Below, one piece after another: positions 33,231-56,750 of a stretch of DNA of 64,000 bases (position 1 is its first letter; every line of letters begins with the position of its first letter). The stretch covers positions 2,733,581 to 2,797,580 of the forward strand of contig CAWJTA010000002.1 of the NCBI GenBank assembly GCA_963845665.1. The letters run 5' to 3'. A program made the translations under genes and the position numbers. Origin of the DNA: an uncultured Verrucomicrobiae bacterium. GTDB taxonomy: Bacteria; Verrucomicrobiota; Verrucomicrobiia; Limisphaerales; UBA11358. Under the pieces are notes generated by a model that saw only the letters and a list, made by a program, of their open reading frames with translations, did not search any database and was not told the DNA's origin.

Positions 33231-35630
33231 TCATTTTTTTGATGATTGGGGCAGTCCTGAAAAAGAATCCTGGTTTGTAAATCTTAGGGACCATTTAATG
33301 GTCCGGCTCGTTTTAGAGGAGATCATAACACGAAGCCAACCACTTTCTTCATCTGCCGGGGGATTGGGAGTGATGATCGCGTCTTCCGCTGATACCGAGG
33401 CAGAGATAAATTTCCAGTTGCTTGAGTCGTCATCTACTCCGGCAATCCGAATCTCGTACGGGTCATTCCCGACAACCTGGCTGGTCGCCGAAAGCGTTCC
33501 TGTAGATGGATTCCATTGCTCGCCCTTAACGTCAACTATTCCCTGGGTTACATGCTGTGAAGTGCTAACAAGCACGGGGTGGTCTTCAGCAGCGCGGACC
33601 GCAATGACGCGGCATGATTCCGCCGGCACATCGAATTTGAAAACGCCTTTGAAAGACGGCAGAGGTGATTTGTTCCAAAAGTCAAAGGCGTAATAAGACT
33701 TCGTCGCATCCAATCCCGCTTTGGCGGCGTCATAACTTATATATTTCTTCTCGCTGTCCCAATTATACAGCCCAAGGACGTCACGATGCACGGAGCCGCT
33801 GGCGTCTGTGGTCAGCCAAATCTCCGGCATCGTGGTATCAAAATAATCCACCGGGCGTGCTGTGGCATGATAAGGAATCATACAACGTTTGAGAATATCA
33901 AGACGTTCAGGTGAAAGGCCGGGAAGCCAATCGCTGTCGAGGTTAAACATTCCGCTCAGAGCCATCCACGAGGCAAGCAGTTGCGCATGATTCAGCTTTA
34001 CGCTGTCGCGAACGTACGCGGGATCCGGATCATTCCACCATACGCGTCCATTCAGAAAGTAAAGCCGGTTGCCGCGAATTGGTCCGGTGATGATGCCACC
34101 GCCATCGGGATGAATAATCTCCTTGCGGTAGTCCTCCCAGCCAAACCCGTTATCCGGGCCAATCCGCATCGAGTCCACCAGGCCGATGGAGCCGCCCAGG
34201 GAACGCATATTCTGGCTGGCGCAGCAGCCGGAGAAAAAGACATTTGGCCCGGCGCCTTTGCGCAGAAGCTTTAATCCATCCCGAAGCGCTTCGATACTGG
34301 TTTTCATCGGGTTGTAAAAAGGCAGATAGTTGCCGATGGCATCATCTTTATACCCATCGTTAACATATAGTTGTTCTGTGACAGAACCTGTCCACAGCCC
34401 GTCCAACTTAAAATAGTCATAGCCCCACTCATGTATCGTGTGAGCCAGGTCTATAATGTGTTTTTGAACATCCGGCCTCGTTAAATCGAGTGACGTGCCG
34501 CCCCAAACCGTATCGTAAGGGCTGCCATCCAGGCGTTTCATGAACCAATTTTGTCGGCCTATATATTCCGGGTCCTGATAGTTGCGGGCAAAGGGGATAA
34601 ACCATATTCCAGCGGTCAACCCGTTGCTTTTTATCATATTCGAAATCGGCTTCATGCCGCGCGGATAGGCGCCACCAGGCGCCGCCCTGGTAAACCCCCG
34701 CCGGGGACCGTTAAATAACCCGCCATCCTGCCATCCATCATCGATCTGCACAAACGAGAATCCGTAAGGCTTGAGTTCTTCAGCTGCGTATTTAGCCAGC
34801 ATGGTGATGTTTTTCTCGTTGCTGCAACCGCCCCCGCCTTTTTTATCAGTCAGTCCGCCTACCTCGGAATACCAGGTACAATAACCGGCAGCTTGCGGAT
34901 GGAGCTGAATGTGATACCGCTTTTTAATCGCATCGGCGTAGGTTTCTTCGCCGATTCGCGCATCATCAAACACACCGATGGCCAGAGTTTCCAATGTTTC
35001 TGACCTCCTGGGAAGTATATGCAAATGGCCGTAGTCAATCTGGGCTTTAAATTCAGTACGACCATCTTTCAAGCTGGAAAATATCACTCCACTGCCGCGG
35101 TCTTCAGTCAGCCAGCCGGCGACAACCCCGCGGCGTGTCCCTGGATCGGCAAGTGTCAGGAACAGATAACTCCCAGGGTTCATGTCGGGAGCGGTCAAAC
35201 CGGCTGTTCCCATCGTGCGGAGTTCGCCAGGCGACTTGCCGAGATCAAGGTCGAATGTCACCACAGCAAGCTTGTGGTAGTCGGTGACAGCGGCGCAATT
35301 ATTGCGCAATTCCCTGCGAACAAGAAGAAACGGAAGATGGTTATAAAGCTCGAGATTCACGATGCTGCCGTTGGCCTGTGACACCACGATTCTCGATCCC
35401 TTGCCAAACACCGGGTCATTAGCAGGACGGATAGCCGCCTCCTTTACCCCGCCTTCCAATTTGCCATTAACCAGAAAGCGGTCGCCTGTGGCCTTTTCTA
35501 TTCCGCAGAACGCTCCGGTTACCGCGTCAAACTCAATGGACAATGCTTCATTACCGATAGTATATGGAGTCGCAATTAATTCATTTGGAACCCAAACCGC
35601 TAAAATTAAAATAATTGCCCAGTATTTCAT
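33231..35630 (-). CDS. Secreted alpha-galactosidase-like glycoside hydrolase (GH36/GH27 clan-D-like)
   Basis: Signal peptide. 'FSFVQIDDGWQDG' and 'EWGYDYFKLDGLW' match the DDGW and Y-x-K-x-D motifs of melibiase-type enzymes. The family assignment is tentative. Confidence 0.6.
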   Translation of the reverse strand: MKYWAIILILAVWVPNELIATPYTIGNEALSIEFDAVTGAFCGIEKATGDRFLVNGKLEGGVKEAAIRPANDPVFGKGSRIVVSQANGSIVNLELYNHLPFLLVRRELRNNCAAVTDYHKLAVVTFDLDLGKSPGELRTMGTAGLTAPDMNPGSYLFLTLADPGTRRGVVAGWLTEDRGSGVIFSSLKDGRTEFKAQIDYGHLHILPRRSETLETLAIGVFDDARIGEETYADAIKKRYHIQLHPQAAGYCTWYSEVGGLTDKKGGGGCSNEKNITMLAKYAAEELKPYGFSFVQIDDGWQDGGLFNGPRRGFTRAAPGGAYPRGMKPISNMIKSNGLTAGIWFIPFARNYQDPEYIGRQNWFMKRLDGSPYDTVWGGTSLDLTRPDVQKHIIDLAHTIHEWGYDYFKLDGLWTGSVTEQLYVNDGYKDDAIGNYLPFYNPMKTSIEALRDGLKLLRKGAGPNVFFSGCCASQNMRSLGGSIGLVDSMRIGPDNGFGWEDYRKEIIHPDGGGIITGPIRGNRLYFLNGRVWWNDPDPAYVRDSVKLNHAQLLASWMALSGMFNLDSDWLPGLSPERLDILKRCMIPYHATARPVDYFDTTMPEIWLTTDASGSVHRDVLGLYNWDSEKKYISYDAAKAGLDATKSYYAFDFWNKSPLPSFKGVFKFDVPAESCRVIAVRAAEDHPVLVSTSQHVTQGIVDVKGEQWNPSTGTLSATSQVVGNDPYEIRIAGVDDDSSNWKFISASVSAEDAIITPNPPADEESGWLRVMISSKTSRTIKWSLRFTNQDSFSGLPQSSKK

Positions 35631-35773
35631 CTTTTACCATCATTCTGCAGCCCGCCAAGGTTGAATAGACTGATTGGGATTGCCCGTTGCTCTGTATTAG
35701 TACCTATCAGTCCCATTTGTCTCTTTCGCCGGCTGTTCTAATTTCTATTCACATTCACGCGACGGTTTAATTC

Positions 35774-36700
35774 TCAAGGATGAGATTCAGGAGTCCAACC
35801 CCGGTACCAATACAAAGTCCAAAGTAAATCGAGACGGACGAGCTTGACGTGGGCGTCAGCGAAAGCGACGTTTATAGACCCGGGAAGGATGCCGCCGGCC
35901 GGCCATTGTGTATGAGCTTTGGCAGTTGGATGCCCGGAATAGCTGCCGTGGCGCGCAATGCAGAATCGTTCGATACCTTCAGTGCTGCCGCTTGGATCAT
36001 TTGCCGTTGAACCCATCGTCTGCGTATACAGGCTATAAGGCGGAAACTGGTTCACGTCCGGCCAGGCATCGCACCACAACGCATCCGCGATGAGAGGTGT
36101 TTCTGCCGGAAACTTCACCATGGATTCCTTTTGAAAATTGATCGTGGTATCTCTGTCATAGTAAAAATAACCGTTCAAGCCGTAGCCTCCCTGATACTCT
36201 GTCGTATTTGGATTGCCACCATAAGGAACACCGTTGTAATACCATACTTTATCCGCTGCGCCATACATGGAGTTGGCCGGAATTTGGGCGCCGAATAATT
36301 CCGGCGTCATGGGACAAATGCGAACCTTTTGCACTGTAGATTGATAGCTAATCAGATTCACCATCCATATGCCCTGACCCTGGCCTCCACCATTGTTAAA
36401 AAAAGTGGTGCCATTGTCGTCGAAATACATTTTGCAGGCGATGGCCATTTCCTTTTCGTTGCTCATGCAGGCGGCCTGCAGAGCCTTTAACTTGCCCTTG
36501 TTCAATGCCGGCAATAGGATCGACGCCAGGATGGCAATGATGGCCACCACTATCAAAAGTTCTATTAGAGTGAAGGCCGATGGACCATAAACATTTGGCT
36601 TTTTCACGAATAGCATCGAATTTTCAAAGCGGCCTGCCATACTGACAGCCGGGAGATTTCTCCCGGCTGCCATGCTGTTTGATGACTGAATTTCCAACAC
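35774..36700 (-). CDS. Prepilin-type N-terminal cleavage/methylation domain protein (pseudopilin-like, H-X9-DG/DUF1559-like)
   Basis: 'SAFTLIELLIVVAIIAILASILLPAL' and C-terminal 'INVAFADAHVKLV'. The start is either ATG 36700 (4 nt after the LamG gene) or ATG 36616 ('MLFVKKPNVYGPSAFTLIEL'). Confidence 0.85.
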   Translation of the reverse strand: MLEIQSSNSMAAGRNLPAVSMAGRFENSMLFVKKPNVYGPSAFTLIELLIVVAIIAILASILLPALNKGKLKALQAACMSNEKEMAIACKMYFDDNGTTFFNNGGGQGQGIWMVNLISYQSTVQKVRICPMTPELFGAQIPANSMYGAADKVWYYNGVPYGGNPNTTEYQGGYGLNGYFYYDRDTTINFQKESMVKFPAETPLIADALWCDAWPDVNQFPPYSLYTQTMGSTANDPSGSTEGIERFCIARHGSYSGHPTAKAHTQWPAGGILPGSINVAFADAHVKLVRLDLLWTLYWYRGWTPESHP

Positions 36701-36704
36701 TTTC

Positions 36705-38846
36705 TTATGGCGGTGTTAAAGTTGTGCGATAAAACGCCGCCGGACCATTTGCCGGAACCGCGTACGGGGATGTCGCAGTATTCGCGTATGTCCAGGGACC
36801 GTTAATTGAGGTGGCTTCCTGCAGATAGCCAGAGTTCCAGGTAATGATGACGTTCGGGCCTGAAAGCTGGATTGAGACAAGCGGAGGAGAGGCATTTGTT
36901 CCTGTAAGGCCAATTTGGTAATGCTGCTGGATTTGGGCGGGTGTCAGAGCATAATCATAAATGGCTACGTTGTTTATTGAACCGTCCAGCGATGGCGGTA
37001 TCACCCCGGCTGGACCATTTGCCGGGCGTGCCCCGATCGCCCACCCCCCGTTGGCCGTAACAGCGCCCGGCGGCATATTCGTGTCCAACATGTCCGCAAT
37101 ATCAACGCCGTTGCGATACAAACGCCAATATGTGCCATCCGCCACGCCGACCAAATAGACCCACTGCCCCTGATCTTCGGGGGGGACCGCGTAATAAGGA
37201 CCAAAAGTCGGAGGAATGGCGACTTGCACGTCGCGTTCGAAGCTATATTCACCATATGGATCAATTTCAAGAGCGTCGTCTGACTTGTTCGGGTTTGCAT
37301 CAATTGCCGGCCCATGGGTGACAATGTATTGTTGATCAGAGATATCCTGAAGCTGGACCCAGGCTTCGATCGTGAGCGGCCCGACAATGCCCATCGCAGT
37401 GGGATTATTAATGTAAATACCGTTGGTAGCGGCTGAATCTAAAGTCACCGCAGTTCCAAGATAGCTGCTGGCTCCGGGTTGTTGGAAAAGCACGGGTGCA
37501 TTGGTCGCATCGTAGGTGACATAAGTGCCGTTATTATCAACAGGGTCAATCAAGTCATAACAGACCGGGCCGTTTGTTTCATGCAACGGGTAAAAAGCCA
37601 CGGGTAGGGCACTGATAACGTTGGACTGATAAACATCCAAAGGCAACGCCTGGACCAGTAGTGTGACGGGACCGATATTGGTGCTGCCGAGGATGTTCGT
37701 GACGGTGACGCTGTAACTGCCCGAATTCGTCAATTGAAGATCGTTTAAAGTCAATGTGTTGTTTGTGGCGCCGTGAATGGGCGATGCGCCGTTATACCAT
37801 TGATAGGACAAGGGCTGTGTTCCACCGGCAGTGATGGAAAAGGTACGGCTGTAGCCGATGTAGTTTGTCCCACCGACCGGCGGCGCAGACGGGAAAGGGG
37901 CCGACACGTTCGCACCCGAGACACCAGTCAAATAATGGTTCAGGATTTGGGTAGGTGTGAGAACATTGGTATAATACGCGACATGCGATACGGCACCGTT
38001 AAAAAACAAGTCGCGCGTATTCCCCGTGTTCCCGGCGCCACCAAAATAGGATTCACAATACGACCCAATGATAAACGGTTCTATGTGAGTTGGCAACGCG
38101 AAGATGCCTGCATAGGTCGGGTTGTTAGCCGCGTAGATCAAAACTCCGTTCTCATAGAATTTAAAGGAAGATGCACTATAAGTAATAACCATATAACTGT
38201 CCGCCCCTGCCACGTTATTTGTAAAAGCTTCTGGAGTGGGCCCGCTCGAGGTCCAGCCAGCATGGTTTCCATGGGCAAGGTTTACGTCCACTATTCCCGC
38301 GGAACCCGAACCATCAACATGAGTATCAATCCACCATCCGGCCTGGCTGCCGCTGTTGGCTTCGAGGCCTAAAATCACCTGTTCATTTCCGTTGGTATAA
38401 CCAATCGGGTAAGTTGGCAAATGCACCCAGGCTTCCATCGTGAAATTGCTGGCCGGGTCCATTTGAGCATTGTAGGGGACCACAATTTGTGCGTTGGTTA
38501 ACTGGCCGTCTAAGTTTGTGAAATACACGGCAGTTTCATTCGGGAATCCAGGCAAAAGGCCGGGGCCTCCCATGTTATAGGAGATGCCGTCTGATGATCC
38601 GGCGCCCGCGGGAATAAATGACACGTGATAATCCTTGGTTGTCGGCAAATCCGTGGAGGTCATCAGAGTCCCGCTATTGGTGCCGGCGACGTCGTTGATA
38701 ACAGAACCGGATGTTTCCTGCAAAGGCCAGTATGCGTAAGCCCCGTCACTCAATACTGTGCTATCGTAGGCCGTTAAACCAAGCGCAAGGCTGGCGTTTA
38801 GCATCATCAATGCGGCGATCAAGGTGCTTAGTTTATTTATTTTCAT
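36705..38846 (-). CDS. Secreted double LamG (concanavalin-like lectin) protein with a central Ig-like module
   Basis: Signal peptide 'MKINKLSTLIAALMMLNASLA'. Two 'YWPL.E..G....D' LamG starts. Ig-like 'PLSYQWYNGASPIHGATNNTLTLNDLQLTNSGSYSVTVTN'. A conserved C-terminal ~60-aa module follows. Confidence 0.8.
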   Translation of the reverse strand: MKINKLSTLIAALMMLNASLALGLTAYDSTVLSDGAYAYWPLQETSGSVINDVAGTNSGTLMTSTDLPTTKDYHVSFIPAGAGSSDGISYNMGGPGLLPGFPNETAVYFTNLDGQLTNAQIVVPYNAQMDPASNFTMEAWVHLPTYPIGYTNGNEQVILGLEANSGSQAGWWIDTHVDGSGSAGIVDVNLAHGNHAGWTSSGPTPEAFTNNVAGADSYMVITYSASSFKFYENGVLIYAANNPTYAGIFALPTHIEPFIIGSYCESYFGGAGNTGNTRDLFFNGAVSHVAYYTNVLTPTQILNHYLTGVSGANVSAPFPSAPPVGGTNYIGYSRTFSITAGGTQPLSYQWYNGASPIHGATNNTLTLNDLQLTNSGSYSVTVTNILGSTNIGPVTLLVQALPLDVYQSNVISALPVAFYPLHETNGPVCYDLIDPVDNNGTYVTYDATNAPVLFQQPGASSYLGTAVTLDSAATNGIYINNPTAMGIVGPLTIEAWVQLQDISDQQYIVTHGPAIDANPNKSDDALEIDPYGEYSFERDVQVAIPPTFGPYYAVPPEDQGQWVYLVGVADGTYWRLYRNGVDIADMLDTNMPPGAVTANGGWAIGARPANGPAGVIPPSLDGSINNVAIYDYALTPAQIQQHYQIGLTGTNASPPLVSIQLSGPNVIITWNSGYLQEATSINGPWTYANTATSPYAVPANGPAAFYRTTLTPP

Positions 38847-39009
38847 GATTATTGATTTAGGGTTTTGTTTTTGTTTGCTGCGCTCTGCCAGGGCCAGGGT
38901 CCGCCGAGCCTCACCTCAACACGTAAATTGAAAATGCGACGCCGAAAACATTGTTGTCGGGTATTCATGCTGATAGTTAGTTTTTACACCAGTCGTGACT
39001 TCCGCACAA

Positions 39010-39025
39010 TCCGTCAAATGACGGA
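39010..39025. promoter_or_regulatory. 7-2-7 palindromic box TCCGTCA-AA-TGACGGA, copy A (between the LamG operon and the sensor kinase)
   Basis: Exact 16-mer. On the minus strand it is followed directly by TTGTGC (39004-39009), 17 nt, then TAAAAA (38981-38986). It lies 19 nt upstream of the kinase TTG start. Confidence 0.6.
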
Positions 39026-39043
39026 GACGCGCTTTTTCATTGA

Positions 39044-42232: not shown

Positions 42233-42236
42233 CCTT

Positions 42237-42887: not shown

Positions 42888-42946
42888 GCGCATGAGGCCG
42901 CCAAAGCTGTTCAGCGTTCACCGGCCTCAATCCAACGGATGTTATT

Positions 42947-46327: not shown

Positions 46328-46329
46328 AA

Positions 46330-48051: not shown

Positions 48052-48062
48052 TTATTAAATGT

Positions 48063-51000
48063 CTAGGGCGACGGAGAGATACTTCTAAAGAATAGGGTCT
48101 GATTAGTCAACCCGGTTGAATAGGGCGGCGCTGTATTGGTGACATATGTCCAGGGGCCGTGAACCGTAGGAGCCGCCTGCAAATAACCAGAGCCCCATCC
48201 TACGTTTATCTTGTTCCCGGAGATTTGAATGGACATCATCGGCGGCGTTAATGGTATCCCGGTTGAACCCACCTCATAATGCTCGGAGATTTGGGTCGGC
48301 GTCAGCGCATAGTTGTATTCCGCCACGTTCTCCATCCCCCCGTTGTAGAACCGCGTAGAGCCGCTGTTATTGTAGGCTCCCAAATACAAGGGCGTCCCGG
48401 CTGTCGCCTGCGCGTACCCGGACGAACTGCTCACCGCCAGCACCCCGTTGGTATAAACCTTGAAGCTCGTCCCATCATATGTCAGAACATAATACGACCA
48501 TGATCCTTGCAGGCTTGTCCCGGAATTCACTCGGGTCCAGGCGCCCCCGGATGCCAGCCAGCCGTACAGTAGAGGGTTGGCCCCGTTGGGATAGGCGATC
48601 TCAAACGTCCATCCGTACGGGTTAAAGGCCACGTCAAAACTTAACGGGTTCATATCCGCACCCGCTCCATTGACCGGAAAGATCGGCATCTTCAGCCAAG
48701 TTTCGACACTGAAGTTCGGCGTGTTTAAGGTGCTCGAATAAGGAATCCGGATATAGCCGCTGTTTGTGTTTTGGAAATAGATTGCTGTGTCCGAGTTCAC
48801 CCCGTTGGAATACAGTACGCCCGGACCGCCAAACGTCAGACCGGCGGTATTCATGGCTGTGCCATTGTTGGTGCCAGCCACGTCATGAATGACCGTCCCG
48901 CCCATTTCATTGAGCGGCCAGTAGGAAACAGGATGATCGGCAAGGATTGTCGTTTGATAGGATGAGTTGGTCAGGATGGTGAGGGTCGCTTTGGCGCTAG
49001 TGACGGAACCATAGGAATTTGTAATGACCACCAGGTAATCCGCGGCATTGGCCAGTGTTAAATTCGAGATCGTCAGGGTGGCGTTGGTTACGCTGGTGAT
49101 TTGGCTGTTGACTGGCAAATTCGCGTATACTCCGCCGCCGGCAACTCTCGCCATCCATTGATACGATAATTGCGCCAGTCCGGCGGCACCGACGGTGAAT
49201 TGAATGCTCTGGCCGACAATGCTCGTCTGGTTGGACGGTTGCATGGTAATAGTTGGTGCCGGGCTCAAGACAGTCAATGTTGCCACGGCGCTGTTGACCG
49301 GCCCATTCGAATTGCTGACCACGACCATATAGTCAGCAGTATTTGCAAATGTCAAATTGGAGATAGTTAAAGTTGCATTGGTCACGCTGGCGATTTGGCT
49401 GTCAGGCAGCAAATTGGTATAAATGCCGCTGCCGGTGGCACCCGCCATCCATTGATAATACTGGGAACCAATGCTGCCGGCAGTCACCGAAAATACTGCA
49501 GTTTGATCGATGTAATTAGTTTGGCTGGACGGCTGCACGGTGATGACAGGAAATGAATAAGGATTTGGAAATGGCTCGGGCTCAAAATTTGCTCCCGGGA
49601 CCCAATAGGTTCCTCCCGCCTCATAAGCGCCGATGTCTGGAGCAGCCCCAATATATCCATCTGTATAGGGTGAATATACCTCGCCTCCATCAATGGCTCC
49701 CGACCCCGTCTGGGGTACGTAGTTCGATCCCAATGGAGGGTACCAGCCATCATCAGTCAGAGTCGTGCTGCCGCTAAATGCATTGTTCTGGCTGGTTGAG
49801 TGCCAGATATTATTGATGAACGAAACATTAATATCGCCGCCCCCGTTACATAACAAGTCGGTTCCGTTCGAGACGGCAGTATTATTGATAAATAAATTAT
49901 TGGTAAACGAATTGAAACACATTCCATTGGCGTTGCTGTAACAGACGTTCCGATACACAATGTAGTTATTTTGACCTTGATCTACATATACCCCGGCCCA
50001 GCAATTGTGCGCCCAATTATGATGGATGATCGTGCCATTCCCATTGCCTCCTCCCACATACACGTAGGTAGCGCCTCCATCACTGGTCAAAAGCGTCCCA
50101 AAACCCAGGTCGTTATATGCGATATCGACATCCGTAGCGGAGGCGCCAACCAAATATCGGCCACTATACGTAAACGTGTTATTGAGGATCCTCGTCCCAT
50201 TGCCGCCGCTATAGGCAGTGACCGCCGCATAATAAGTTCCAGGATAGTAATCCACCTGCTGGATCACACAATTGCTCACAACCTCATTTTGGCCGCTGCA
50301 TCGGATGCCGTCCTGCGAACTGTATTTAATTGTCGAATTCTCCCACATGCTTCCGCTTCCGCTTACTTGGTTGGCGATGGGAACATCCATCGTCCAGTCC
50401 GCGGTTGTGTTATGTTGCACGTATTCAAGGTTGCAATTGTTCACGATGCAATCGGTGGTATTGGCCATGGAAATACCCGCAGCAAACACATACAGGCCAT
50501 TTACCGTTATGTAGGCCAGATTATCGAGGGTAAAGGCACTGGTTCTTGCCTTGATCTCGACAGTGTGATTGGTCGGGGACGCACTGTCGGGGCACCAGAG
50601 ATATAGCACCTTGGCGTTGGTGTCCAGGTACCATTCGGTTGAGATATCCAGCAGCGGTAATGCGCCGTAGATATAATAGTAGGTGGCGGTCGCACCGGAA
50701 TTGAAAATATTTCCGTTCCACGAAAGTTTCTTCGCCACGGGATCCCAGGCTGTGATAAGACGGGTATTGGCCGCGTAACCCGAATTATTGTACTCATTAG
50801 GGAATATATGAAGGGTTGCTCCCAAAAGATTTACATTTGGCAGAGAGCTATCCATCAGATTTGTCAGCGTGCAGGAATTGGGGGTCGATCGTGGCGCGTA
50901 GAGCAGATTATTGACCGTGGCATTGGGCCAGCGCGCTTCATTCATCATGACTCCATCCACGAAGAGCTGCCTGAATGAACTCGTCGTGCTCGCCTGGTAA

Positions 51001-51335
51001 ATGGAATTACTATAAACGTTCCACGTCAGGCTGATCGGGTTGGCGCCGCTGACTATCGGAATTGCACCGGGGTAAGCGGCGAACGTAATGGGCAAACCGG
51101 CCGTGCCACTATGCGCCGGCACGACTGTCTCGCGATAAGTTCCCGAAAAAATATAGCAGGTATCACCGGCATTCATGACCGATGCCGCTTTCTGGATGGT
51201 TAGAAATGCGAGGTTCGTGGTGCTTCCGGGATTTGAGTCATTCCCGGATTTTGCCACGTAGTAAACTGCAGCCTGCCCGGATTGAGCCAGAAAAACAATA
51301 GCCAGAAACGTGAAAAAAATATTTCTTACAGTCAT
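48063..51335 (-). CDS. Secreted right-handed beta-helix (pectate-lyase-fold) protein with two Ig-like modules and a C-terminal LamG module
   Basis: 'YYVAKSGNDSNPGS...TIQKAASVMNAGDTCYIFSGTYRE', many beta-helix coils, 2 x 98-aa Ig-like repeats. The LamG start 'YWPLNEMGGTVIHDVAGTNNGTAM' and the C-terminal tail are paralogous to 36705..38846. Confidence 0.85.
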   Translation of the reverse strand: MTVRNIFFTFLAIVFLAQSGQAAVYYVAKSGNDSNPGSTTNLAFLTIQKAASVMNAGDTCYIFSGTYRETVVPAHSGTAGLPITFAAYPGAIPIVSGANPISLTWNVYSNSIYQASTTSSFRQLFVDGVMMNEARWPNATVNNLLYAPRSTPNSCTLTNLMDSSLPNVNLLGATLHIFPNEYNNSGYAANTRLITAWDPVAKKLSWNGNIFNSGATATYYYIYGALPLLDISTEWYLDTNAKVLYLWCPDSASPTNHTVEIKARTSAFTLDNLAYITVNGLYVFAAGISMANTTDCIVNNCNLEYVQHNTTADWTMDVPIANQVSGSGSMWENSTIKYSSQDGIRCSGQNEVVSNCVIQQVDYYPGTYYAAVTAYSGGNGTRILNNTFTYSGRYLVGASATDVDIAYNDLGFGTLLTSDGGATYVYVGGGNGNGTIIHHNWAHNCWAGVYVDQGQNNYIVYRNVCYSNANGMCFNSFTNNLFINNTAVSNGTDLLCNGGGDINVSFINNIWHSTSQNNAFSGSTTLTDDGWYPPLGSNYVPQTGSGAIDGGEVYSPYTDGYIGAAPDIGAYEAGGTYWVPGANFEPEPFPNPYSFPVITVQPSSQTNYIDQTAVFSVTAGSIGSQYYQWMAGATGSGIYTNLLPDSQIASVTNATLTISNLTFANTADYMVVVSNSNGPVNSAVATLTVLSPAPTITMQPSNQTSIVGQSIQFTVGAAGLAQLSYQWMARVAGGGVYANLPVNSQITSVTNATLTISNLTLANAADYLVVITNSYGSVTSAKATLTILTNSSYQTTILADHPVSYWPLNEMGGTVIHDVAGTNNGTAMNTAGLTFGGPGVLYSNGVNSDTAIYFQNTNSGYIRIPYSSTLNTPNFSVETWLKMPIFPVNGAGADMNPLSFDVAFNPYGWTFEIAYPNGANPLLYGWLASGGAWTRVNSGTSLQGSWSYYVLTYDGTSFKVYTNGVLAVSSSSGYAQATAGTPLYLGAYNNSGSTRFYNGGMENVAEYNYALTPTQISEHYEVGSTGIPLTPPMMSIQISGNKINVGWGSGYLQAAPTVHGPWTYVTNTAPPYSTGLTNQTLFFRSISPSP
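48965..49555 (-). repeat. Two tandem 294-nt Ig-like coding repeats
   Basis: 'ggacggttgcatggtaat' at 49233 versus 'ggacggctgcacggtgat' at 49527. The protein repeats both end 'TNATLTISNLT(F/L)AN(T/A)ADY(M/L)VV(V/I)(S/T)NS'. Confidence 0.8.
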
Positions 51336-51423
51336 TAAAATGGGCCGCTGGCTTTAGCGGAGCGGTAAGCATTAGCCATGTGTTTGTGTTGATATTCTTA
51401 CATCAGGTTTTGCTGTTTCACAA

Positions 51424-51439
51424 TCCGTCAAATGACGGA
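51424..51439. promoter_or_regulatory. 7-2-7 palindromic box, copy B (upstream of the beta-helix/GH3/GH29-like operon)
   Basis: Exact 16-mer. On the minus strand it is followed by TTGTGA (51418-51423), 17 nt, then TAAGAA (51395-51400). The operon start codon is at 51335. Confidence 0.6.
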
Positions 51440-51499
51440 GGCTATTGTGTACAGACTCATTATTCAAAGACGCGATATCTGGAATTCTCTGATTTTGCC

Positions 51500-52987
51500 T
51501 TAATTTACATCCGTGCGAAACGGGGTCGCGGGGAGCCCTTGCTGGTTGACCAAATTTACATCGGGCACATTTGACCAGCCATAGCGAACCTCTGCAGGCT
51601 TTGCCACTAAGGGATTATAGACGACCACTTTGTTTCCCTCAATTTCCGCTATGGCGTCAAAAAACTGCCCTTTCGGGCCGGCGATTTGGAAGCCTTTAAG
51701 TTTGCCTCCTCTGGCTGCCAGGCCGCCGGTCGCATGGCTGAAGTAAATGATCGCGTGGTCTTTTTTAATTTTCATCGAATCATAGACGGGCCCCGAATAT
51801 TCTATCTTTTTGCCGTAGGCAACAGCGCGCGCCGCCAATGCAAGTCGGGCGCCGACGGGTTCTTTTCGCGTGGGATGAATATTATTCGTGTCGCCAACGT
51901 CGGTAATAACCACCATCGCCGTTCGAGGCACCTGTTGCCAGGTCAATAATTGTGCTTCACGGATTTCCGGAGTCATGTCACGCTGCGGCGCAATTTGGAC
52001 AAACAGAAATGGAAACCTGCTTTCTCCCCAGGCAATCCTCCAGCTTCGAATCAGGGCGGGGAAGAGTTTGCGATATTCATTGGCGCGCTTGTTGTTCGAC
52101 TCACCCTGGTACCAGATGACACCTGCAATTGCAAAAGGCTGAAGAGGAGCTATCATGGCATTATACAATCCGGCGGGACGGTTAAAGCTAATGGCCGGGC
52201 TTTTGGCGACCTGCACCCTGGATACATCTTTGCCTTCAGCTTTTGCTTCAGCGACGTTCGTTTGGTATTCGGCCCGGGCCTGGGCCGGATCAAATGTTTT
52301 TACGGCCAATGCCTGTCGTTCGAGGATTTGCTTTAAATCCGGGTCCTCTTCAAGAGCAGTACGAGCAGTCCAGGCTTCGGCTGGTGTTCCTCCAACGGAT
52401 GAATGAATCAGACCGATGGGGATTTTCATTGTCCTGCGAAGATCGCGTCCAAAGAAGTATCCTACCGCGGAAAAATATTTCGCCTTTCCAGGCGTTGATT
52501 CAACCCAGGACCCGGACACATCGGTCTTTGGTTCATCCGACGCCTCATGAGCAACCGTGAAAAAACGCAATTGAGAGTCTGAAGCGGTGGCTAAAGCTTC
52601 CGACGCATTCGTGGTGGCAGCCAACGGCATTTCCATGTTTGATTGCCCGCTGCAGAGCCAGACCTCACCCACCAGAACATTGGTAATCGTAACAATATTT
52701 TCACCGGCAATGGTCATAACAAATGGTCCGCCGGCTTCTAAAGGTTTGAGATGCAACATCCAGTGCTCTTCGCGCGCTGTGGTGGATACCGTTTGATTTT
52801 GAAATTTGACGGTTATTTTTTCGCCATCTCTTGCGCTGCCCCAGATTGGCAGTTTGACTCCTCGCTGCAAGACGACACCGTCGGAAAAGAGAGCATTTGG
52901 TTGGACGGCATACATCGATAATGGCCGGCAGGTCAACAACACGACGATTTGGAAAATGTGAATTATGCGCGAATTGATTTTCATCAT
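51500..52987 (-). CDS. Sialate O-acetylesterase-like (SASA/SGNH) carbohydrate esterase
   Basis: Signal peptide. 'LFSDGVVLQRGVKLPIWG', 'GEVWLCSGQSNME', 'GVIWYQGESN'. Confidence 0.85.
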   Translation of the reverse strand: MMKINSRIIHIFQIVVLLTCRPLSMYAVQPNALFSDGVVLQRGVKLPIWGSARDGEKITVKFQNQTVSTTAREEHWMLHLKPLEAGGPFVMTIAGENIVTITNVLVGEVWLCSGQSNMEMPLAATTNASEALATASDSQLRFFTVAHEASDEPKTDVSGSWVESTPGKAKYFSAVGYFFGRDLRRTMKIPIGLIHSSVGGTPAEAWTARTALEEDPDLKQILERQALAVKTFDPAQARAEYQTNVAEAKAEGKDVSRVQVAKSPAISFNRPAGLYNAMIAPLQPFAIAGVIWYQGESNNKRANEYRKLFPALIRSWRIAWGESRFPFLFVQIAPQRDMTPEIREAQLLTWQQVPRTAMVVITDVGDTNNIHPTRKEPVGARLALAARAVAYGKKIEYSGPVYDSMKIKKDHAIIYFSHATGGLAARGGKLKGFQIAGPKGQFFDAIAEIEGNKVVVYNPLVAKPAEVRYGWSNVPDVNLVNQQGLPATPFRTDVN

Positions 52988-53063
52988 TAATTGCGGTCAA
53001 GTCGGTTTGTTGTAAAGCCGGTCTATTGAGGATTTATCAGCCAAAGATTTGCGCCCTGAACAG

Positions 53064-53079
53064 TCCGTCAAATAACAGA
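53064..53079. promoter_or_regulatory. 7-2-7 box, copy C (one perfect half-site, one degenerate) upstream of the esterase gene
   Basis: 'TCCGTCA-AA-TAACAGA' has 2 mismatches in the right half. On the minus strand it is followed by CTGTTC (53058-53063), 18 nt, then TGATAA (53034-53039). The start codon is at 52987. Confidence 0.45.
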
Positions 53080-53089
53080 ACCATAGCAA

Positions 53090-53959
53090 CTATTGCGGTT
53101 GTCCTGCATACTTCATTATAAAATCCACAATTGGCGCAGGATCAGTTAGGCCGTGAGGATGATGGCCGACACCATGCTTTACGATTAACGTGATGTTCCC
53201 TCCTAAATCACGATAACGTTTGGCCACGATCCCTGTATTTTCGTCCCAAGGCACAACCGGATCCGCATCCCCGTAAACATGTAGCAGCGGGACTCTGTGG
53301 TCCGCGAGGGGTTTGAGGTTATCGATCGGATTTCCGGGATAAGCTATTGCTTCTGCGTCGGACTTGAAACCGTATGCTTTGAGCATTTTTCCCCATTCTT
53401 CCTTGCTGCCGTCACCTTTGCCCAAATTCCTGGCTTTTCCGCCCGGCCAGCTTTTGAAATCACAAACCGGGGCATCTGCATAAATACACGCCACCTTGTC
53501 AGGATTGGCTGTCGCCCAGTTATAACAATAGAGGCCGCCGCGGCTCAAACCAATCAGCGCGACTTTTTTCGCGAATCCGTATTTCTTCGTCAGTTCCCTG
53601 TAAAACGTGTCCCAAAGCTCGACTGCTTTGGGACTTCCAAACATATCTGGCGTGCTTAAAAATGCGAGATAAAGACCGTTGGTGAGAAGCGCCGCATCTG
53701 CATTTGCATAAATTCCGAAGAACTCTCCGCGCCATGCCCACGGGCGGTTCGGCAATTGTTGCCTCGGCGCGACCACGATGGCGTTCCTGCCCCCGACTTT
53801 AAAATCATACCTGTCAAAACCATTCCATTTTGATTTTATTCCCGGAAACATTGCCGCATTCGTGGAGGGCGCGTACGCCGCATCAGATCCAGCCATTCGA
53901 CCGGGCAATAGCAAAGCCACCAGGATTATAATAACAAATGGAATCAAACGCGTTGACAT
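53090..53959 (-). CDS. Secreted alpha/beta-hydrolase (esterase)
   Basis: Start taken at ATG 53959 ('MSTRLIPFVIIILVALLLPG' signal). Nucleophile elbow 'GLSRGG'. C-terminal 'HGVGHHPHG'. Confidence 0.75.
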   Translation of the reverse strand: MSTRLIPFVIIILVALLLPGRMAGSDAAYAPSTNAAMFPGIKSKWNGFDRYDFKVGGRNAIVVAPRQQLPNRPWAWRGEFFGIYANADAALLTNGLYLAFLSTPDMFGSPKAVELWDTFYRELTKKYGFAKKVALIGLSRGGLYCYNWATANPDKVACIYADAPVCDFKSWPGGKARNLGKGDGSKEEWGKMLKAYGFKSDAEAIAYPGNPIDNLKPLADHRVPLLHVYGDADPVVPWDENTGIVAKRYRDLGGNITLIVKHGVGHHPHGLTDPAPIVDFIMKYAGQPQ

Positions 53960-53993
53960 GACCGGCTGTTGTATATTTAAAAATTTGTTCGAG

Positions 53994-54019
53994 TACAATC
54001 CGTCAAATGACGGATTGTA
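53994..54019. promoter_or_regulatory. 7-2-7 box, copy D, extended to a perfect 26-nt palindrome between divergent genes
   Basis: 'TACAATCCGTCA-AA-TGACGGATTGTA'. Minus side: TTGTAC (53993-53998), 17 nt, TATACA (53970-53975), then 10 nt to ATG 53959. Plus side: TTGTAA (54015-54020), 17 nt, TAAACA (54038-54043), then 13 nt to TTG 54057. Confidence 0.65.
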
Positions 54020-54056
54020 ATGCGGATCGGAAATCATTAAACAAATCATATAAGTT

Positions 54057-56750
54057 TTGAAGAAAACAGTTCCCTTTTCACGAGCGCGATTACTTGCCAC
54101 TGCCATTGTTGCGTTTGTGTGCCAGATTTCTGAGGCAACACATTTTTACGTGTCCACGAATGGTAACGATGCGAACTCCGGCCGCGGTCCGGGCAGAGAA
54201 CAATCTCTAAAAACTATTCAGGCCGCGGTCGATAAACTGCGGCCTGGCGATTTCCTTTCAATTGGCGGCGGTGTCTATCGTGAAACCGTTGTTTTTCATC
54301 ATAGTGGGACCGGGGAAAGTATAATTACCGTCGAACCATACAGAAATGAGCGAGTGATCATCACCGGTTGTGAACCTGTTACCGGGTGGACCAGGTACAC
54401 AAATAATATTTGGATGGCTCGCATGAATTGGACCCTGGGATTGGGGCGCAACCAGGTATTTGACGATGGCAATGTGTTGATTGAGGCCCGCTATCCAAAC
54501 GAGCCAGACCGCGGCCTGGAAATTCCAGTTCGCGGCTTAAGCAAGTTATGGCCGACTTTTGGCGAATTCTCGATCCCGGCCGACACCGGAAAGTCGCAAC
54601 CGGGAAGGATTGTGAGCAAATTGCTTGAAAGGGAGCCTGATGATTACTGGAGGGGCGCCCTTTACTACGGCGTTCACTACCAGGGCTGGTCCGCACAAAC
54701 GGGTATTATAGAAAGTTCAAAAGCCGGAGAAATTGTTGTCGGAGATCGCACCAAAACGTGGTGGTTCGCCGGGACACGATATGGGGAAGAAATGGGCCGG
54801 GGAATGATTATTGGTCATATGCATGCCCTGGATCAACCCGGCGAATGGGTTTGGCAGCGGAACATGCTCTATATGATTCCGCCTGCTGGCGCCGCCCCGG
54901 ACGGACTTATAGACGCCAAAAAAAGGCAATTGGCATTTGATCTGTCCGGCCAGAGCTACATCCATATTCGTGGTCTTGCCGTCAACGCCGCTTCTGTCAA
55001 AATGGATGGGTCGGCCTGGTGCTCTTTTGACCACTGCGACTTCAGCTATATCTCGCATTTTACGCTAATGTACGGAATCGGGCAGGTCGAAAAAGGCCGG
55101 GACACGATCAAATCCGGCGAAACGGGTATTTTTATCAGCGGCCACGACAATGCATTCCTGAGTTGCAGCGTCCGTTTCAGCGCCGGCGCCGGATTCTATC
55201 TTCGAGGTTACCACCAGACGATCCATAACTGCCTGATCGATGAAGTTGATTATTCCAGCCACTATCTCAACGCCATTACCGAGGCGGTGGCAGATTTTCA
55301 AGACGATGAAGACCTTCTTGTCGGCGGCCACGTGATTACCTGCAACACTATGAGCAATGCCGGAAGGCATTTTTTTAACTTTTCAGGCAATGGCACCAGC
55401 ATGGTATCGCGCAACCGCGCGCCTATGAATTATATGGCTACACTGTTTGCACACAATCACCTCTTCAACGGCATGCTTGAAACAAGGGACGCCGGTTTTC
55501 TCACGGGTTACTTCAGCAGTGGCGGCACGCTTGACGGGTTGAACTCGCAAGTGGCGTTCAATGTCATGCATGATTCTTACGACCCTTTTGGCATGCGAAT
55601 CAAAAAACTAGGGATCATTTATTTGGACCAGGGAACCTGCAACGTGGATCTCTATGATAATTTGCTTTGGGCCAAACCCGGGTCCCTGCAGCAGGGCTTT
55701 TGGTACAACACGTGTTGCGTTGGCATTCGCGAAACCAATAATGTCTTCTATACGAACTTTATTCGGTCCGGCAATGAATTAAGGCCTGGCGATTTTCCGG
55801 AAGGCAAGGCATTTCAATTCGGTTGCAATTTTAGCCATCCACCACCCATACCTCAGTGGCCGCCACTCGACAGTCAATGGGAGTCGGCGGAATCAGTCAC
55901 AAGCTTTTCTCCTGGGATCGTGAAATCAACCAATGGTCTCACCGGTTTGACCAATGGCAGCTGGCTTTGTTTTGGCAACGTTGACTTCAACCAGCATTGG
56001 CAATCGATTGTTTTGCACTTTTCAAGTGACGCCAAACAAATGAATACCGACAAAACTGATCGGACTCCTCCACGCCACCAGAAAGCAACTGACCCATTGG
56101 TGTTTGAATTCGCCGCTAATGATGGCGTTCGGGCGGATGTGCAAAAATACTGGACCTTTGTTCATGGATTCACCAACGGCGCGTGGTTGCGTTTCAATAA
56201 AGTCCCGATGGGCAACGGATACCGCCGATTTCGGATAATCTATGGCCATACAAATGAAATTCCCCGGACGCTTGAAGTCCATATGGATAGCCCAACCGGC
56301 CCGCTCATCGGCACTGCACCTCTTTCCAAAACCGACAAGCCCAGGATCGGCTGGACGCAAATTTATGGCGAGGCTATCGGTGAGATCTCAAGCCTGGCAG
56401 TGGGTACTCATGACATTTTTTTGGTCTTCCATTCCAATGACGCGAAAACAATCGGAGAATTTGAGTATTTCCGGTTTGAGCAGTATCGGGGAGAGATCGC
56501 CTTGCAGAAGAATGATGTAAAACTCGAAATCCGTATTGACAGCAAAGACGGAGAGAAAATCGGCGACATTTTCCCGCATTTTACCGGCGGATCTGCTAAT
56601 TTTACTGATTTCGTCGCCTCGATTGAACCAACCAAAGCAAAAGGCCCCTTGTTTATTGTCGTGCGGTCAAAACTCGATTCGCCTATCGGTGAAATCGGGT
56701 GGATCCGTTTGGATAGAAAAAAGGATTTTATAACGGGAATTCAACAGTGA
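54057..56750 (+). CDS. Secreted right-handed beta-helix protein with C-terminal CBM6/35-like carbohydrate-binding modules
   Basis: 'HFYVSTNGNDANSG...TIQAAVDKLRPGDFLSIGGGVYRE'. Two CBM-like modules ('GSWLCFGNVDFNQHWQSIVLHFSS', 'GAWLRFNKVPMGNGYRRFRIIYG'). Confidence 0.8.
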   Translation: MKKTVPFSRARLLATAIVAFVCQISEATHFYVSTNGNDANSGRGPGREQSLKTIQAAVDKLRPGDFLSIGGGVYRETVVFHHSGTGESIITVEPYRNERVIITGCEPVTGWTRYTNNIWMARMNWTLGLGRNQVFDDGNVLIEARYPNEPDRGLEIPVRGLSKLWPTFGEFSIPADTGKSQPGRIVSKLLEREPDDYWRGALYYGVHYQGWSAQTGIIESSKAGEIVVGDRTKTWWFAGTRYGEEMGRGMIIGHMHALDQPGEWVWQRNMLYMIPPAGAAPDGLIDAKKRQLAFDLSGQSYIHIRGLAVNAASVKMDGSAWCSFDHCDFSYISHFTLMYGIGQVEKGRDTIKSGETGIFISGHDNAFLSCSVRFSAGAGFYLRGYHQTIHNCLIDEVDYSSHYLNAITEAVADFQDDEDLLVGGHVITCNTMSNAGRHFFNFSGNGTSMVSRNRAPMNYMATLFAHNHLFNGMLETRDAGFLTGYFSSGGTLDGLNSQVAFNVMHDSYDPFGMRIKKLGIIYLDQGTCNVDLYDNLLWAKPGSLQQGFWYNTCCVGIRETNNVFYTNFIRSGNELRPGDFPEGKAFQFGCNFSHPPPIPQWPPLDSQWESAESVTSFSPGIVKSTNGLTGLTNGSWLCFGNVDFNQHWQSIVLHFSSDAKQMNTDKTDRTPPRHQKATDPLVFEFAANDGVRADVQKYWTFVHGFTNGAWLRFNKVPMGNGYRRFRIIYGHTNEIPRTLEVHMDSPTGPLIGTAPLSKTDKPRIGWTQIYGEAIGEISSLAVGTHDIFLVFHSNDAKTIGEFEYFRFEQYRGEIALQKNDVKLEIRIDSKDGEKIGDIFPHFTGGSANFTDFVASIEPTKAKGPLFIVVRSKLDSPIGEIGWIRLDRKKDFITGIQQ

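Follow-up and report, generated by a model that had tools for sequence, protein, structure and literature searches.

The hybrid two-component systems (HTCS) of Bacteroides bind oligosaccharide signals through a beta-propeller/Y_Y_Y domain, and polysaccharide utilization loci (PULs) of the Bacteroidota type are recognized by adjacent susC and susD genes. In Verrucomicrobiota, PUL-like clusters of carbohydrate-active enzyme (CAZyme) genes that lack SusCD and centre on GH29 have already been described (Orellana et al. 2022, PMC8857213), and the regulation, glycan capture and import of such SusC/SusD-less clusters are an open question in the outlook of that study. Here we focused on a 12-gene block at positions 33231-56750 (23,520 nt) of a 64-kb stretch of contig CAWJTA010000002.1 (GenBank assembly GCA_963845665.1; the whole 64,000 nt are hereafter called the window). 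The block is likely a PUL-like regulon of the polysaccharide-utilization type, without SusC/SusD, in an uncultured Verrucomicrobium. The host probably belongs to subdivision 3 / Verrucomicrobiae; several block genes have their nearest named relatives in metagenome-assembled genomes (MAGs) of Verrucomicrobiae, subdivision 3 or Limisphaerales, many of them from bog, fen and soil studies. The locus is of an ordinary kind and does not overturn current understanding. What is new are its details, namely a conserved operator-promoter module, a split HTCS-like sensor with a NarL-type output, and a protein family linked to GH29 (hereafter, the U625 family, represented in the block by a 625-aa protein, U625).

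Gene content, sensor and operator-promoter module

In the open reading frame (ORF) listing, 12 ORFs of at least 250 aa fill the block end to end, and six transcription units account for all of them: LamG2-pseudopilin-GH36L, kinase-regulator-U625, BH_LamG-GH3-GH29L (intergenic gaps of 11 and 2 nt), and the single genes SASA, alpha/beta-hydrolase and BH_CBM6. Protein families were assigned by a Pfam scan with curated cut-offs, an NCBIfam scan and a phmmer search against PDB sequences; the names that NCBIfam contributed were limited to generic pilin and GH3 ones. An earlier reading of the DNA from its letters (hereafter, the sequence-only reading) had proposed a 12-gene secreted glycan-processing block, and this description stands, with export-type signals at the N-termini of ten proteins and two regulators making up the rest; its domain labels were nearly all upheld by Pfam. 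It had also proposed that every non-regulatory protein is exported. In a simple hydrophobicity scan, which is cruder than SignalP, all 10 have a hydrophobic or prepilin segment at the N-terminus (best Kyte-Doolittle 11-mer of 2.2-3.8 inside the first ~70 residues), and the response regulator has none. In a CAZyme gene cluster, as dbCAN defines it, one or more CAZyme genes lie close to one or more genes for signal transduction, transcription factors or transporters; the block holds GH3 (219 bits) and GH29 (49 bits) above Pfam cut-offs, a SASA esterase, and the kinase and regulator. The susC and susD pair of a Bacteroidota-type PUL is missing. None of the 12 ORFs matched SusC/TonB (TonB_dep_Rec, Plug), SusD, ABC, MFS or sulfatase families in Pfam, in agreement with the earlier observation that the Bacteroidetes uptake route is lacking, and no SusC/SusD gene was found among those annotated beside the operator (described below) in relatives.

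The sensor histidine kinase (39044..42232, plus strand) has two membrane segments, an extracytoplasmic Reg_prop beta-propeller/Y_Y_Y sensor and a DesK-like HisKA_3 + HATPase_c core (Pfam). Its sensor region matched the solved periplasmic domains of Bacteroides HTCS (3v9f, E 7e-58; 4a2l, E 1e-52). The gene for the response regulator, a member of the NarL/LuxR family (42237..42887, plus strand), starts 4 nt past the kinase stop and encodes a Response_reg (REC) domain and a GerE helix-turn-helix (HTH) domain (Pfam). A HisKA_3 kinase and a REC-GerE regulator are thus encoded together, which is the NarL/LuxR two-component pairing. As judged from these domains, the locus couples a PUL-type sugar-sensor module to a different, split output.

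A comparison of the block's intergenic regions with one another revealed an operator (TCCGTCAAATGACGGA), a 16-bp 7-2-7 inverted repeat of the form TCCGTCA-AA-TGACGGA. It occurs as exact copies at 39010, 51424 and 53999 and with two mismatches at 53064, always intergenic and within the block, and no further copy was found anywhere in the 64 kb. At up to three mismatches, 7 strand-matches were counted against 0.78 expected and no shuffle equalled 7, so chance does not explain the shared 16-mer. At operator 1 (38981..39025, minus strand), the exact site at 39010-39025 is followed by TTGTGC, a 17-nt spacer and TAAAAA, the predicted promoter of LamG2-pseudopilin-GH36L, with the kinase gene on the opposite side. 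Operator 2 (51395..51439, minus strand) has the same layout, its exact site at 51424-51439 being followed by TTGTGA, a 17-nt spacer and TAAGAA, the predicted promoter of BH_LamG-GH3-GH29L. The two-mismatch site of operator 3 (53035..53079, minus strand; site 53064-53079) lies upstream of the SASA gene. Operator 4 (53970..54043, no strand assigned; exact site 53999-54014) has the full palindrome TACAATCCGTCAAATGACGGATTGTA and TTGTAx -35-like hexamers on both sides, which fits the divergent alpha/beta-hydrolase and BH_CBM6 genes whose promoters are predicted there.

The operator was also present at orthologous intergenic positions in the relatives' loci L001, L081, L085 and L086 (64-83% protein identity). 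It lies upstream of the kinase gene in L001 and L081, with a second site upstream of the pseudopilin gene in L081. In L085 it is found between BH_LamG and SASA and beside the alpha/beta-hydrolase gene, and L086 has three sites, one of them equivalent to operator 4 and adjoining the hydrolase orthologue. The position of operator 2 is kept in L085, L088 and L090, and in all five distinct loci holding the kinase-regulator region (the window, L001, L081/L019, L091 and L094) the operator is upstream of that operon. The other 75 loci with a U625 homologue lack it, save for one 2-mismatch site in L062. Metagenome contigs were scanned with the 20-mer ACAATCCGTCAAATGACGGA, and 12 stretches were returned. 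Homologues of block genes adjoin the operator in seven of these (BH_LamG 78%, SASA 74%, GH3 73%, kinase/regulator 60-78%, LamG2 39-47%, pseudopilin 39-42% and GH36-like 46% identity). Pfam matches of the remaining neighbours (GH92, a GH31 N-domain, GDSL and BD-FAE esterases, three pseudopilins and an Ig-domain protein) brought the stretches with related genes to 11 of 12, and the exceptional one has a phage antirepressor-like gene beside the operator.

The promoter part of the module was recognized only through the alignment of operator flanks. When 25 sites were aligned in one direction, TTGT or xTGT stood immediately 3' of the palindrome in 22, and at most sites a TAAAAT-like hexamer stood 17 nt beyond the weak -35-like TTGT(G/A)N. 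Where neighbouring genes were mapped, the TTGT side points to a secreted "structural" gene, and the kinase-regulator operon is on the opposite side. A dimer site abutting a poor -35 hexamer is the classical layout of an activator-dependent promoter, and the NarL/LuxR regulator is the sole DNA-binding protein that travels with the motif. On this basis the block's response regulator is likely the binder of the palindrome, and we infer that it activates rather than represses through it.

In the mechanism that we propose, the membrane histidine kinase would sense a breakdown product of the target glycan with its HTCS-type beta-propeller/Y_Y_Y domain, and would phosphorylate the adjacent NarL/LuxR-type response regulator. 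A dimer of the regulator would bind TCCGTCA-AA-TGACGGA at four places, directly upstream of a weak TTGTGC -35-like hexamer, and turn on five outward-pointing promoters, those of LamG2-pseudopilin-GH36-like, beta-helix/LamG-GH3-GH29-like, SASA, alpha/beta-hydrolase and beta-helix/CBM6; the kinase-regulator-U625 operon would sit across the first operator site. The esterases would deacylate a fucose-bearing, acylated heteroglycan, the GH141/GH120-like beta-helix proteins would cut it, and the GH29-like, GH36-like, GH3 and GH67/GH138-like (U625) proteins would trim it. The LamG/Ig protein and the pseudopilin would probably bind or present the glycan.

Several points weigh against this account. Neither the block nor the surroundings of the operator examined in relatives contained a transporter or sugar-catabolic gene, so that nutrient acquisition is argued from analogy. 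A generic sigma-70 and terminator scan returned consensus promoters that were not enriched over shuffles, and because the 20-mer chose the metagenome sites, the flanking ACAAT there is not independent evidence. Another regulator could bind the palindrome. The predicted leaders at the hydrolase / BH_CBM6 site are only ~5-10 nt long and a promoter-like match, TTTACA-16-CACAAT (38983-39010, plus strand), abuts operator 1 on the kinase side, so repression at some promoters is possible; if the latter promoter is real, the bound regulator could act as a repressor of the kinase operon and as an activator of the divergent LamG2 operon. Finally, the GH36-like, GH141-like and U625 assignments are remote, one of them coming from a poor model.

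Enzymes, binding proteins and the U625 family

GH36L (33231..35630, minus strand; 799 aa, signal peptide), the last gene of its operon, encodes a GH36/GH27-like (clan GH-D) putative alpha-galactosidase. Its Pfam scores were just under the cut-offs (Melibiase 24.8 against 27, Melibiase_2 22.9 against 23 and Melibiase_C 19.0 against 22.9 bits), and phmmer matched it over the barrel to the PDB alpha-galactosidases 6lcj, 1zy9 and 5m0x (E 6e-17 to 1e-16); orthologues in L001 and L081 share 72-75% identity. A new alpha-galactosidase family, 'GH_New2', which is remote from GH36/GH27 and has a three-domain layout, was recently proposed (bioRxiv 10.64898/2026.05.19.726164), and GH36L, with the same three-domain layout, may belong to it. 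The divergent GH29-like protein GH29L (44924..46327, minus strand; 467 aa, signal peptide) scored 49.1 bits with Alpha_L_fucos PF01120 (cut-off 25.2; residues 39-352) and matched PDB fucosidases at E 1e-9. It is 23-26% identical to the canonical GH29 proteins of relatives and 78-80% identical to its orthologues in L001 and L081. The GH3 protein (46330..48051, minus strand), of the NagZ / beta-glucoside-phosphorylase clade, has an N-terminal lipobox-like LIAC and scored 218.9 bits with Glyco_hydro_3 PF00933 (cut-off 27); its best PDB match was the BglX beta-glucoside phosphorylase 5vqd (E 4e-55), followed by GH3 N-acetylglucosaminidases. NagZ enzymes have the motif KHFPGHGxxxxDSH, and at its position residues ~210-225 of GH3 (window 47300-47400) read KHFPGDGVDYRNQH, with the His retained and the Asp of the Asp-His dyad changed to Asn. 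Among the glycosidase labels of the sequence-only reading, GH3 and GH29-like are therefore confirmed at Pfam cut-offs, and GH36-like falls just short of them with the phmmer matches in its favour.

Two esterase-type genes had been named as well, and Pfam bore out both. The SASA-domain carbohydrate esterase (51500..52987, minus strand; 495 aa, signal peptide; SASA 77 bits) has orthologues of 73-75% identity. The secreted, S9-like alpha/beta-hydrolase (53090..53959, minus strand), for which Met50 of the ORF is the likely start, is a probable esterase by its family and has orthologues of 81-82% identity in L085 and L086.

BH_LamG (48063..51335, minus strand; 1090 aa), a secreted beta-helix enzyme and the first gene product of the BH_LamG-GH3-GH29L operon, has a GH141-type insertion, two Ig domains, a LamG domain and a conserved C-terminal tail. 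It gave weak Beta_helix and GH141_M (E 0.006) Pfam matches, and its orthologues in L085, L088 and L090 share 77-78% identity. The secreted beta-helix protein BH_CBM6 (54057..56750, plus strand; 897 aa) ends in a CBM6 (CBM_6) domain, and its exact cluster has a precomputed Pel9A-like_beta_helix match. The earlier description of two pectate-lyase-fold beta-helix proteins with LamG and CBM modules holds for the beta-helix, LamG and CBM6 parts. As for the lyase part, both proteins align with GH120, GH141, PL9 and PL6 only across the N-terminal ~100 residues (in profile comparisons of BH_CBM6, residues 22-125 only against GH141 5mqp, E 3e-8, and residues 23-111 against PL9 1ru4); what is homologous to pectate lyases (PL1, PL9) is this N-terminal cap and not the catalytic beta-helix core, and no lyase domain was found in the local Pfam scan of the two proteins at E <= 0.01. 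The best fold match of BH_CBM6 was the GH141 hydrolase BT_1002 (E 8e-17, ~450 columns), followed by GH120; these matches are weak evidence because the AlphaFold2 model is poor (pLDDT, the predicted local distance difference test, 60), and its residues 374-602 are unresolved. A Bacteroides beta-helix protein encoded beside a U625 homologue has a GH141-type insertion motif in common with both window proteins. On sequence and model together, the beta-helix proteins are candidates for GH141/GH120-like hydrolases rather than pectate lyases.

The double-LamG and pseudopilin-like proteins of the sequence-only reading were both upheld. The pseudopilin-like protein (35774..36700, minus strand; likely start Met29 at 36616) has N_methyl and TIGR02532 prepilin methylation motif matches and carries SAFTLIELLIVVAIIAILA. 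LamG2 (36705..38846, minus strand; secreted, 713 aa) has two Laminin_G_3 domains and an Ig domain, and over its C-terminal half it is paralogous to the Ig-LamG-tail module of BH_LamG (32% identity, E 8e-37). This shared module fits a non-catalytic binding role, and LamG2 is a candidate glycan-binding protein. The two proteins share a ~55-aa end, ...ISG...W.SGYLQ.A....GPWTY....PY.......F(Y/F)R (36705-36900 and 48063-48260), and a flanking adhesin (32900-33093) ends in a similar ...W..L....YYRV tail; the shared tail is possibly a C-terminal domain with a common role in sorting or anchoring. Within the regulon, genes for pseudopilins and LamG/Ig proteins turn up repeatedly (the window, L081, L086, L090, L093, L095 and L096) and give the one lead on glycan capture or import, the recurrent pair being a candidate capture device. 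Literature searches for prepilins with polysaccharide utilization in Verrucomicrobia, and for DUF1559 with polysaccharide, returned nothing relevant.

U625 (42947..44824, plus strand; secreted) belongs to an unnamed family. It had no match in Pfam, NCBIfam or PDB sequences, the last also searched with a 29-sequence profile. Its AlphaFold2 model (pLDDT 80.7) shows a (beta/alpha)8 TIM barrel followed by a C-terminal helical domain, and in Foldseek the GH67 alpha-glucuronidases were nearest (E 7e-13, TM (template modelling) score 0.50, 12-13% identity), then GH138 and GH84. Its residues E225, E339 and E365/E366 are invariant. U625 is a candidate glycosidase that may work like GH67/GH138 enzymes, a likeness of fold and not of membership; the nearest folds being alpha-uronidases, a possible alpha-uronidase function is a lead. 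The protein left unassigned by the sequence-only reading thus still has no family match, and now has a modelled GH67/GH138-like barrel and a tie to GH29 fucosidases across phyla.

The U625 family is large, with more than 1200 relatives in one search and 1015 clusters at 50% identity in an exhaustive search, and it is encoded in 394 species genomes. Carriers are found in Verrucomicrobiota, Acidobacteriota, Planctomycetota, Bacteroidota (Bacteroides, Parabacteroides goldsteinii, Mucilaginibacter, Pedobacter and Chitinophaga), Myxococcota and Actinomycetota. In a census of the neighbours in the 80 best loci, GH29 was the commonest (30 of 80), mostly canonical and usually one or two genes off. A beta-helix protein of ~730 aa followed in 16 loci, then SusC in 15, an HTCS-type sensor in 14, SusD in up to 12 (two clusters of 6, assigned without Pfam), GH3 in 11, GH92 in 9, GH88 in 8, a GDSL esterase in 7, SASA and DUF5040 in 6 each, and GH2, GH95, GH97 and BD-FAE in 4 each. 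Members of the family are also fused to sulfatase, LamG, DUF5013, SLH + Big_2, GDSL and ThuA domains. From its neighbours and domain fusions, U625 appears to behave as an extracellular carbohydrate-active catalytic domain on fucose-bearing glycans. Gut Bacteroides have a conserved gene string: in Bacteroides sp. f07 (L044, 7744-13868), genes for a beta-helix protein, the U625 homologue, DUF5040 and GH29 stand in a row beside SusC and HTCS genes, and a similar string is present in L036, L038, L041, L043 and L053. No paper mentioning DUF5040 was found in the literature searched, nor a description of the U625 family in the literature on new GH families related to GH67/GH138. Its identity with either new GH family of one relevant preprint was considered and rejected, as neither fits. 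With ~1000 clusters at 50% identity and members beside GH29 in cultured Bacteroides, Parabacteroides, Mucilaginibacter, Pedobacter and Streptomyces, the family can be expressed and screened. Among the carriers in culture, Parabacteroides goldsteinii DSM 19448, Mucilaginibacter aquatilis and Bacteroides caecimuris have both GH29 and beta-helix genes beside it.

The genes gathered under the regulon in this lineage (GH29 and GH29-like, GH36-like, GH3, GH116, GH92, GH127, GH31, U625, GH141-like and four esterase types) suggest as the putative target a branched heteroglycan, from plants or microbes, that bears fucose and is heavily acylated. The earlier suggestion of an acetylated, branched polysaccharide is plausible, with two esterase-type genes here and GDSL and BD-FAE genes beside the operator in relatives, and "fucose-bearing" is the better-supported qualifier. 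Rhamnogalacturonan II (RG-II) was not adopted as the substrate, most of the required families being missing. We also put forward, tentatively and as rather unlikely to hold jointly, two linked ideas: that the pseudopilin and LamG/Ig proteins form a SusC/SusD-independent device for capturing, presenting or importing glycan fragments, and that U625 founds an unclassified GH family with a GH67/GH138-like barrel, possibly of alpha-uronidases, that partners GH29 in at least 6 phyla including gut Bacteroides.

Synteny in relatives and the tRNA-Arg boundary

The block genes recur in relatives as two modules. Module A is kept in L001 and L019/L081 (two species, 64-83% protein identity), which have GH36L, the kinase, the regulator, U625, GH29L and GH3, and in L081 also BH_LamG; LamG2 and the pseudopilin are absent between GH36L and the kinase gene in these relatives. 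Additions to module A are GH116, a canonical GH29 and a second GH29-like gene, together with a pseudopilin in L081 and GH92 in L001. Module B (BH_LamG, SASA, the hydrolase and BH_CBM6) keeps its synteny in L085 (75-83% identity), where LRR (leucine-rich repeat), BD-FAE and GH127 genes have been inserted. In the MAG of L001, module B is on a separate contig (L086), followed by genes for a LamG protein and a pseudopilin, and both contigs have the operator. The 12 genes of the window are thus one arrangement of a two-module, gene-flexible regulon. The sequence-only reading had asked whether the block is present as a unit next to tRNA-Arg. Adjacency to the tRNA is not conserved in relatives, and the unit gives way to two modules with gains and losses (GH116, GH92, GH127, canonical GH29, esterases) that retain the same operator-promoter module. 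Since they carry this module, the rearranged genes of relatives appear to be co-regulated, and most of the family assignments either held or were sharpened; neither of the two failures named earlier as speaking against the block was seen.

The sole tRNA gene in the window is tRNA-Arg(ACG) (56812-56888, minus strand; ARAGORN), with its 3' end toward the block. The distance of 61 nt between block and tRNA, which had been reported before, is correct (last stop at 56750). The 137-nt spacer at the far end of the block holds a possible decayed 3' half of tRNA-Arg(ACG) as an attachment site (att)-like direct repeat (33125..33190, minus strand), which includes the 13-nt exact match TCTGATCCGTAGT (33178-33190, equal to 56845-56857); the upstream 56.7 kb contain no other exact match of at least 12 nt to the tRNA region. 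In a semi-global scan of the window with the 46-nt tRNA 3' half, 33125-33190 was the best match with a score of 13 (next 12 and 10; mean 1.5, standard deviation 2.3). A higher-scoring local match at 20939-20955 was rejected as chance, being part of the D-arm and inside a conserved kinase gene. In L100 (GCA_035507975.1), the closest relative with both flanks (~84% DNA identity, identical tRNA), homology breaks off precisely where the tRNA ends on its 3' side; L100 then has a GH28 segment of 2.2 kb, and the match resumes at window 21016. The segment absent in L100 measures 35.8 kb, is larger than the block and lies between tRNA-Arg and a hybrid kinase gene (18521-21064). Inside it, at 21017-33124, are a MoxR/DUF58/BatA/BatB/BatD/TPR operon and an adhesin gene, which L100 lacks at this place. 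The protoporphyrinogen-oxidase neighbourhoods in L082-L084 were not conserved and had no tRNA, and only L100 was informative. In the metagenome contig L094 (337-1720), a tRNA-Arg(ACG) is reduced to its 3' half; a 419-aa integrase (phrog_1, E 4e-10) lies 75 nt beyond it, with Fic and HTH/HsdM-fragment genes next. This tRNA fragment is ~7 kb from the operator-bearing kinase/regulator pair. The region downstream of tRNA-Arg is clearly variable, and tRNA-Arg seems to be an integration hotspot in the lineage.

These observations bear on the origin of the block, which is a question compatible with the functional reading. The block may have arrived as a horizontally moved island, through a tyrosine integrase acting at an anticodon-loop-to-3'-end att site of tRNA-Arg(ACG) and lost later; we consider this a serious possibility, somewhat short of an even chance. 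The block begins 61 nt from the tRNA 3' end and is absent at that site in L100, and the left-border match has the orientation of a direct repeat and breaks off at the anticodon-loop base where the genuine tRNA-Arg 3' half beside the L094 integrase also stops. The repeat is, however, short and decayed, its score of 13 being close to the runner-up of 12, and the segment missing from L100 extends beyond the block to the MoxR/Bat operon and the adhesin gene. No integrase family was found among the 12 ORFs or the annotated flank ORFs, nor any excisionase or other mobility gene in the window, and the 61 nt at the tRNA leave no room for one. The GC content at third codon positions (GC3) is 0.51-0.60 in all 12 genes against 0.62-0.70 in 13 of 15 measured left-flank genes, yet low GC3 is also seen in some flank genes, and relatives carry the same genes and operator in tRNA-free contexts. 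The evidence for an insertion of the block at the tRNA is suggestive only.

Both flanks of the block have ordinary genes, namely FtsK, DnaE, SHMT and MoxR/Bat operon genes on the left, and on the right those of a large surface protein, a protoporphyrinogen oxidase and an M50 protease. One 722-aa ORF at 12780-14948 (plus strand) is an unusual three-way fusion of a low-molecular-weight phosphotyrosine phosphatase domain, RpiB (ribose-5-phosphate isomerase B) and a complete serine hydroxymethyltransferase. A gene for a large secreted Ig / He_PIG / VWA-like surface protein (29526-33093, plus strand), which lies between the MoxR/Bat operon and the block, appears to be broken over at least 4 reading frames and is either a pseudogene or the product of long-read assembly frameshift errors. 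On the other side, a 615-aa protein (57335-59182, plus strand) has a Peptidase_S74 (endosialidase chaperone) domain and repeats matching phage structural-protein families; because L100 has it too, along with the oxidase gene and tRNA-Arg, it is probably a core surface protein and not a prophage remnant.

Alternative explanations and comparison with known systems

The sequence-only reading had leaned towards beta-helix proteins that act as pectate-lyase-type polysaccharide lyases on a pectin-like polyuronide. The precomputed Pel9A-like_beta_helix match, the weak PelN, PL9 and PL6 matches, the alpha-uronidases among the nearest folds of U625, and the presence of GH88, which follows lyases, near U625 homologues in 8 of 80 loci are all in keeping with it. 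The PelN, PL9 and PL6 matches are, however, confined to the N-terminal ~100 residues, a cap that is common to GH120 and GH141 hydrolases, and BH_CBM6 matched the fold of GH141 BT_1002 best over ~450 columns. BH_LamG has its weak GH141_M insertion match, and the block has no GH28, GH105, GH88, PL1 or CE8 gene. We therefore find the pectin-lyase reading unsupported and consider it unlikely.

The cluster could instead remodel the cell's own surface, its matrix polysaccharide or an adhesion apparatus, with the LamG/Ig, pseudopilin and beta-helix proteins being adhesins or matrix-processing enzymes. We regard this as improbable, although it would account for the missing transporter and catabolic genes in the block and beside the examined operator sites, for the pseudopilins and LamG/Ig proteins that recur in the regulon, and for the large Ig and S74-type surface proteins encoded by the neighbours. 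Against it stand a battery of exo-glycosidases (GH3 and GH29, with GH92, GH116, GH127 and GH31 in relatives), several esterase types and an HTCS-type sugar-sensor domain, the signature of a catabolic PUL, and the Bacteroidota homologues of U625 sit in SusC/SusD loci. A chance clustering without functional unity is very improbable. CAZyme genes are dense in Verrucomicrobia, gene content and order vary among relatives, and relatives have other CAZyme clusters beside the protoporphyrinogen-oxidase gene, but all four copies of the operator-promoter module in the 64 kb fall within the block, and the module is kept beside the same gene families in relatives and metagenome contigs. A SusC/SusD-less regulon for the use of a polysaccharide thus remains the reading that we prefer.

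Among known systems, the RG-II degradome of B. thetaiotaomicron offers BT_1002 (GH141) as the best fold for BH_CBM6 and GH138 (6hze/6hzf) as the second-best fold family for U625, and its GH127 has counterparts among the genes of the relatives' orthologous clusters. The likeness is one of fold, at 11-16% identity, and GH28, GH43, GH78, GH95, GH105, GH106, GH137, GH139, GH140, GH143 and PL1 are absent here. Islands integrated at tRNA genes by P4-type integrases (anticodon-loop-to-3'-end att) resemble the block in their position at a tRNA 3' end, in a candidate displaced 3' half at the far border, in a GC3 lower than that of most flank genes and in absence from the site in the closest relative, and the L094 integrase lies beside the same tRNA fragment. 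Unlike such islands, the block has no integrase or mobility gene, its repeat is decayed and the variable segment is larger than the block.

Operators that are 7-2-7 inverted repeats are known from NarL/FixJ-family regulators, as in the NarL heptamers of E. coli. The block agrees with such regulons in pairing a REC + GerE regulator with a HisKA_3 kinase, in having a 7-2-7 repeat beside the -35 region, and in a site before the regulator's own operon. Its half-site TCCGTCA is unrelated to the NarL consensus, and binding is here predicted from sequence.

The HTCS-controlled PULs of Bacteroidota (for example, the heparin PUL of B. thetaiotaomicron with BT4663) likewise have clustered secreted glycosidases/esterases and a dedicated sensor, to whose solved domains (3v9f, 4a2l) the Reg_prop + Y_Y_Y sensor of the block is homologous. 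Genes for U625, GH29, beta-helix, GH3 and esterase proteins co-occur in SusC/SusD PULs of Bacteroides, Parabacteroides, Mucilaginibacter and others. In contrast to those PULs, the block has neither a SusC/SusD pair nor a transporter, and its pseudopilin and LamG/Ig proteins occupy the place of surface glycan-binding proteins. Its sensor is a classical non-hybrid HisKA_3 (DesK-like) kinase with a separate NarL/LuxR regulator, whereas HTCS have a fused receiver and AraC output.

The block matches the clusters of the same phylum reported by Orellana et al. 2022 (PMC8857213), in which fucosidase-family genes also stand with other glycosidases and carboxylesterases in the absence of SusCD. Those clusters are marine and rich in sulfatases, whereas the block has no sulfatases and its relatives are soil/peat-type MAGs. 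The block further stands out in that its regulator pair is identified and its operator-promoter module is conserved; neither was found described in the literature searched, and the module provides a handle to enumerate the regulon in genomes and metagenomes.

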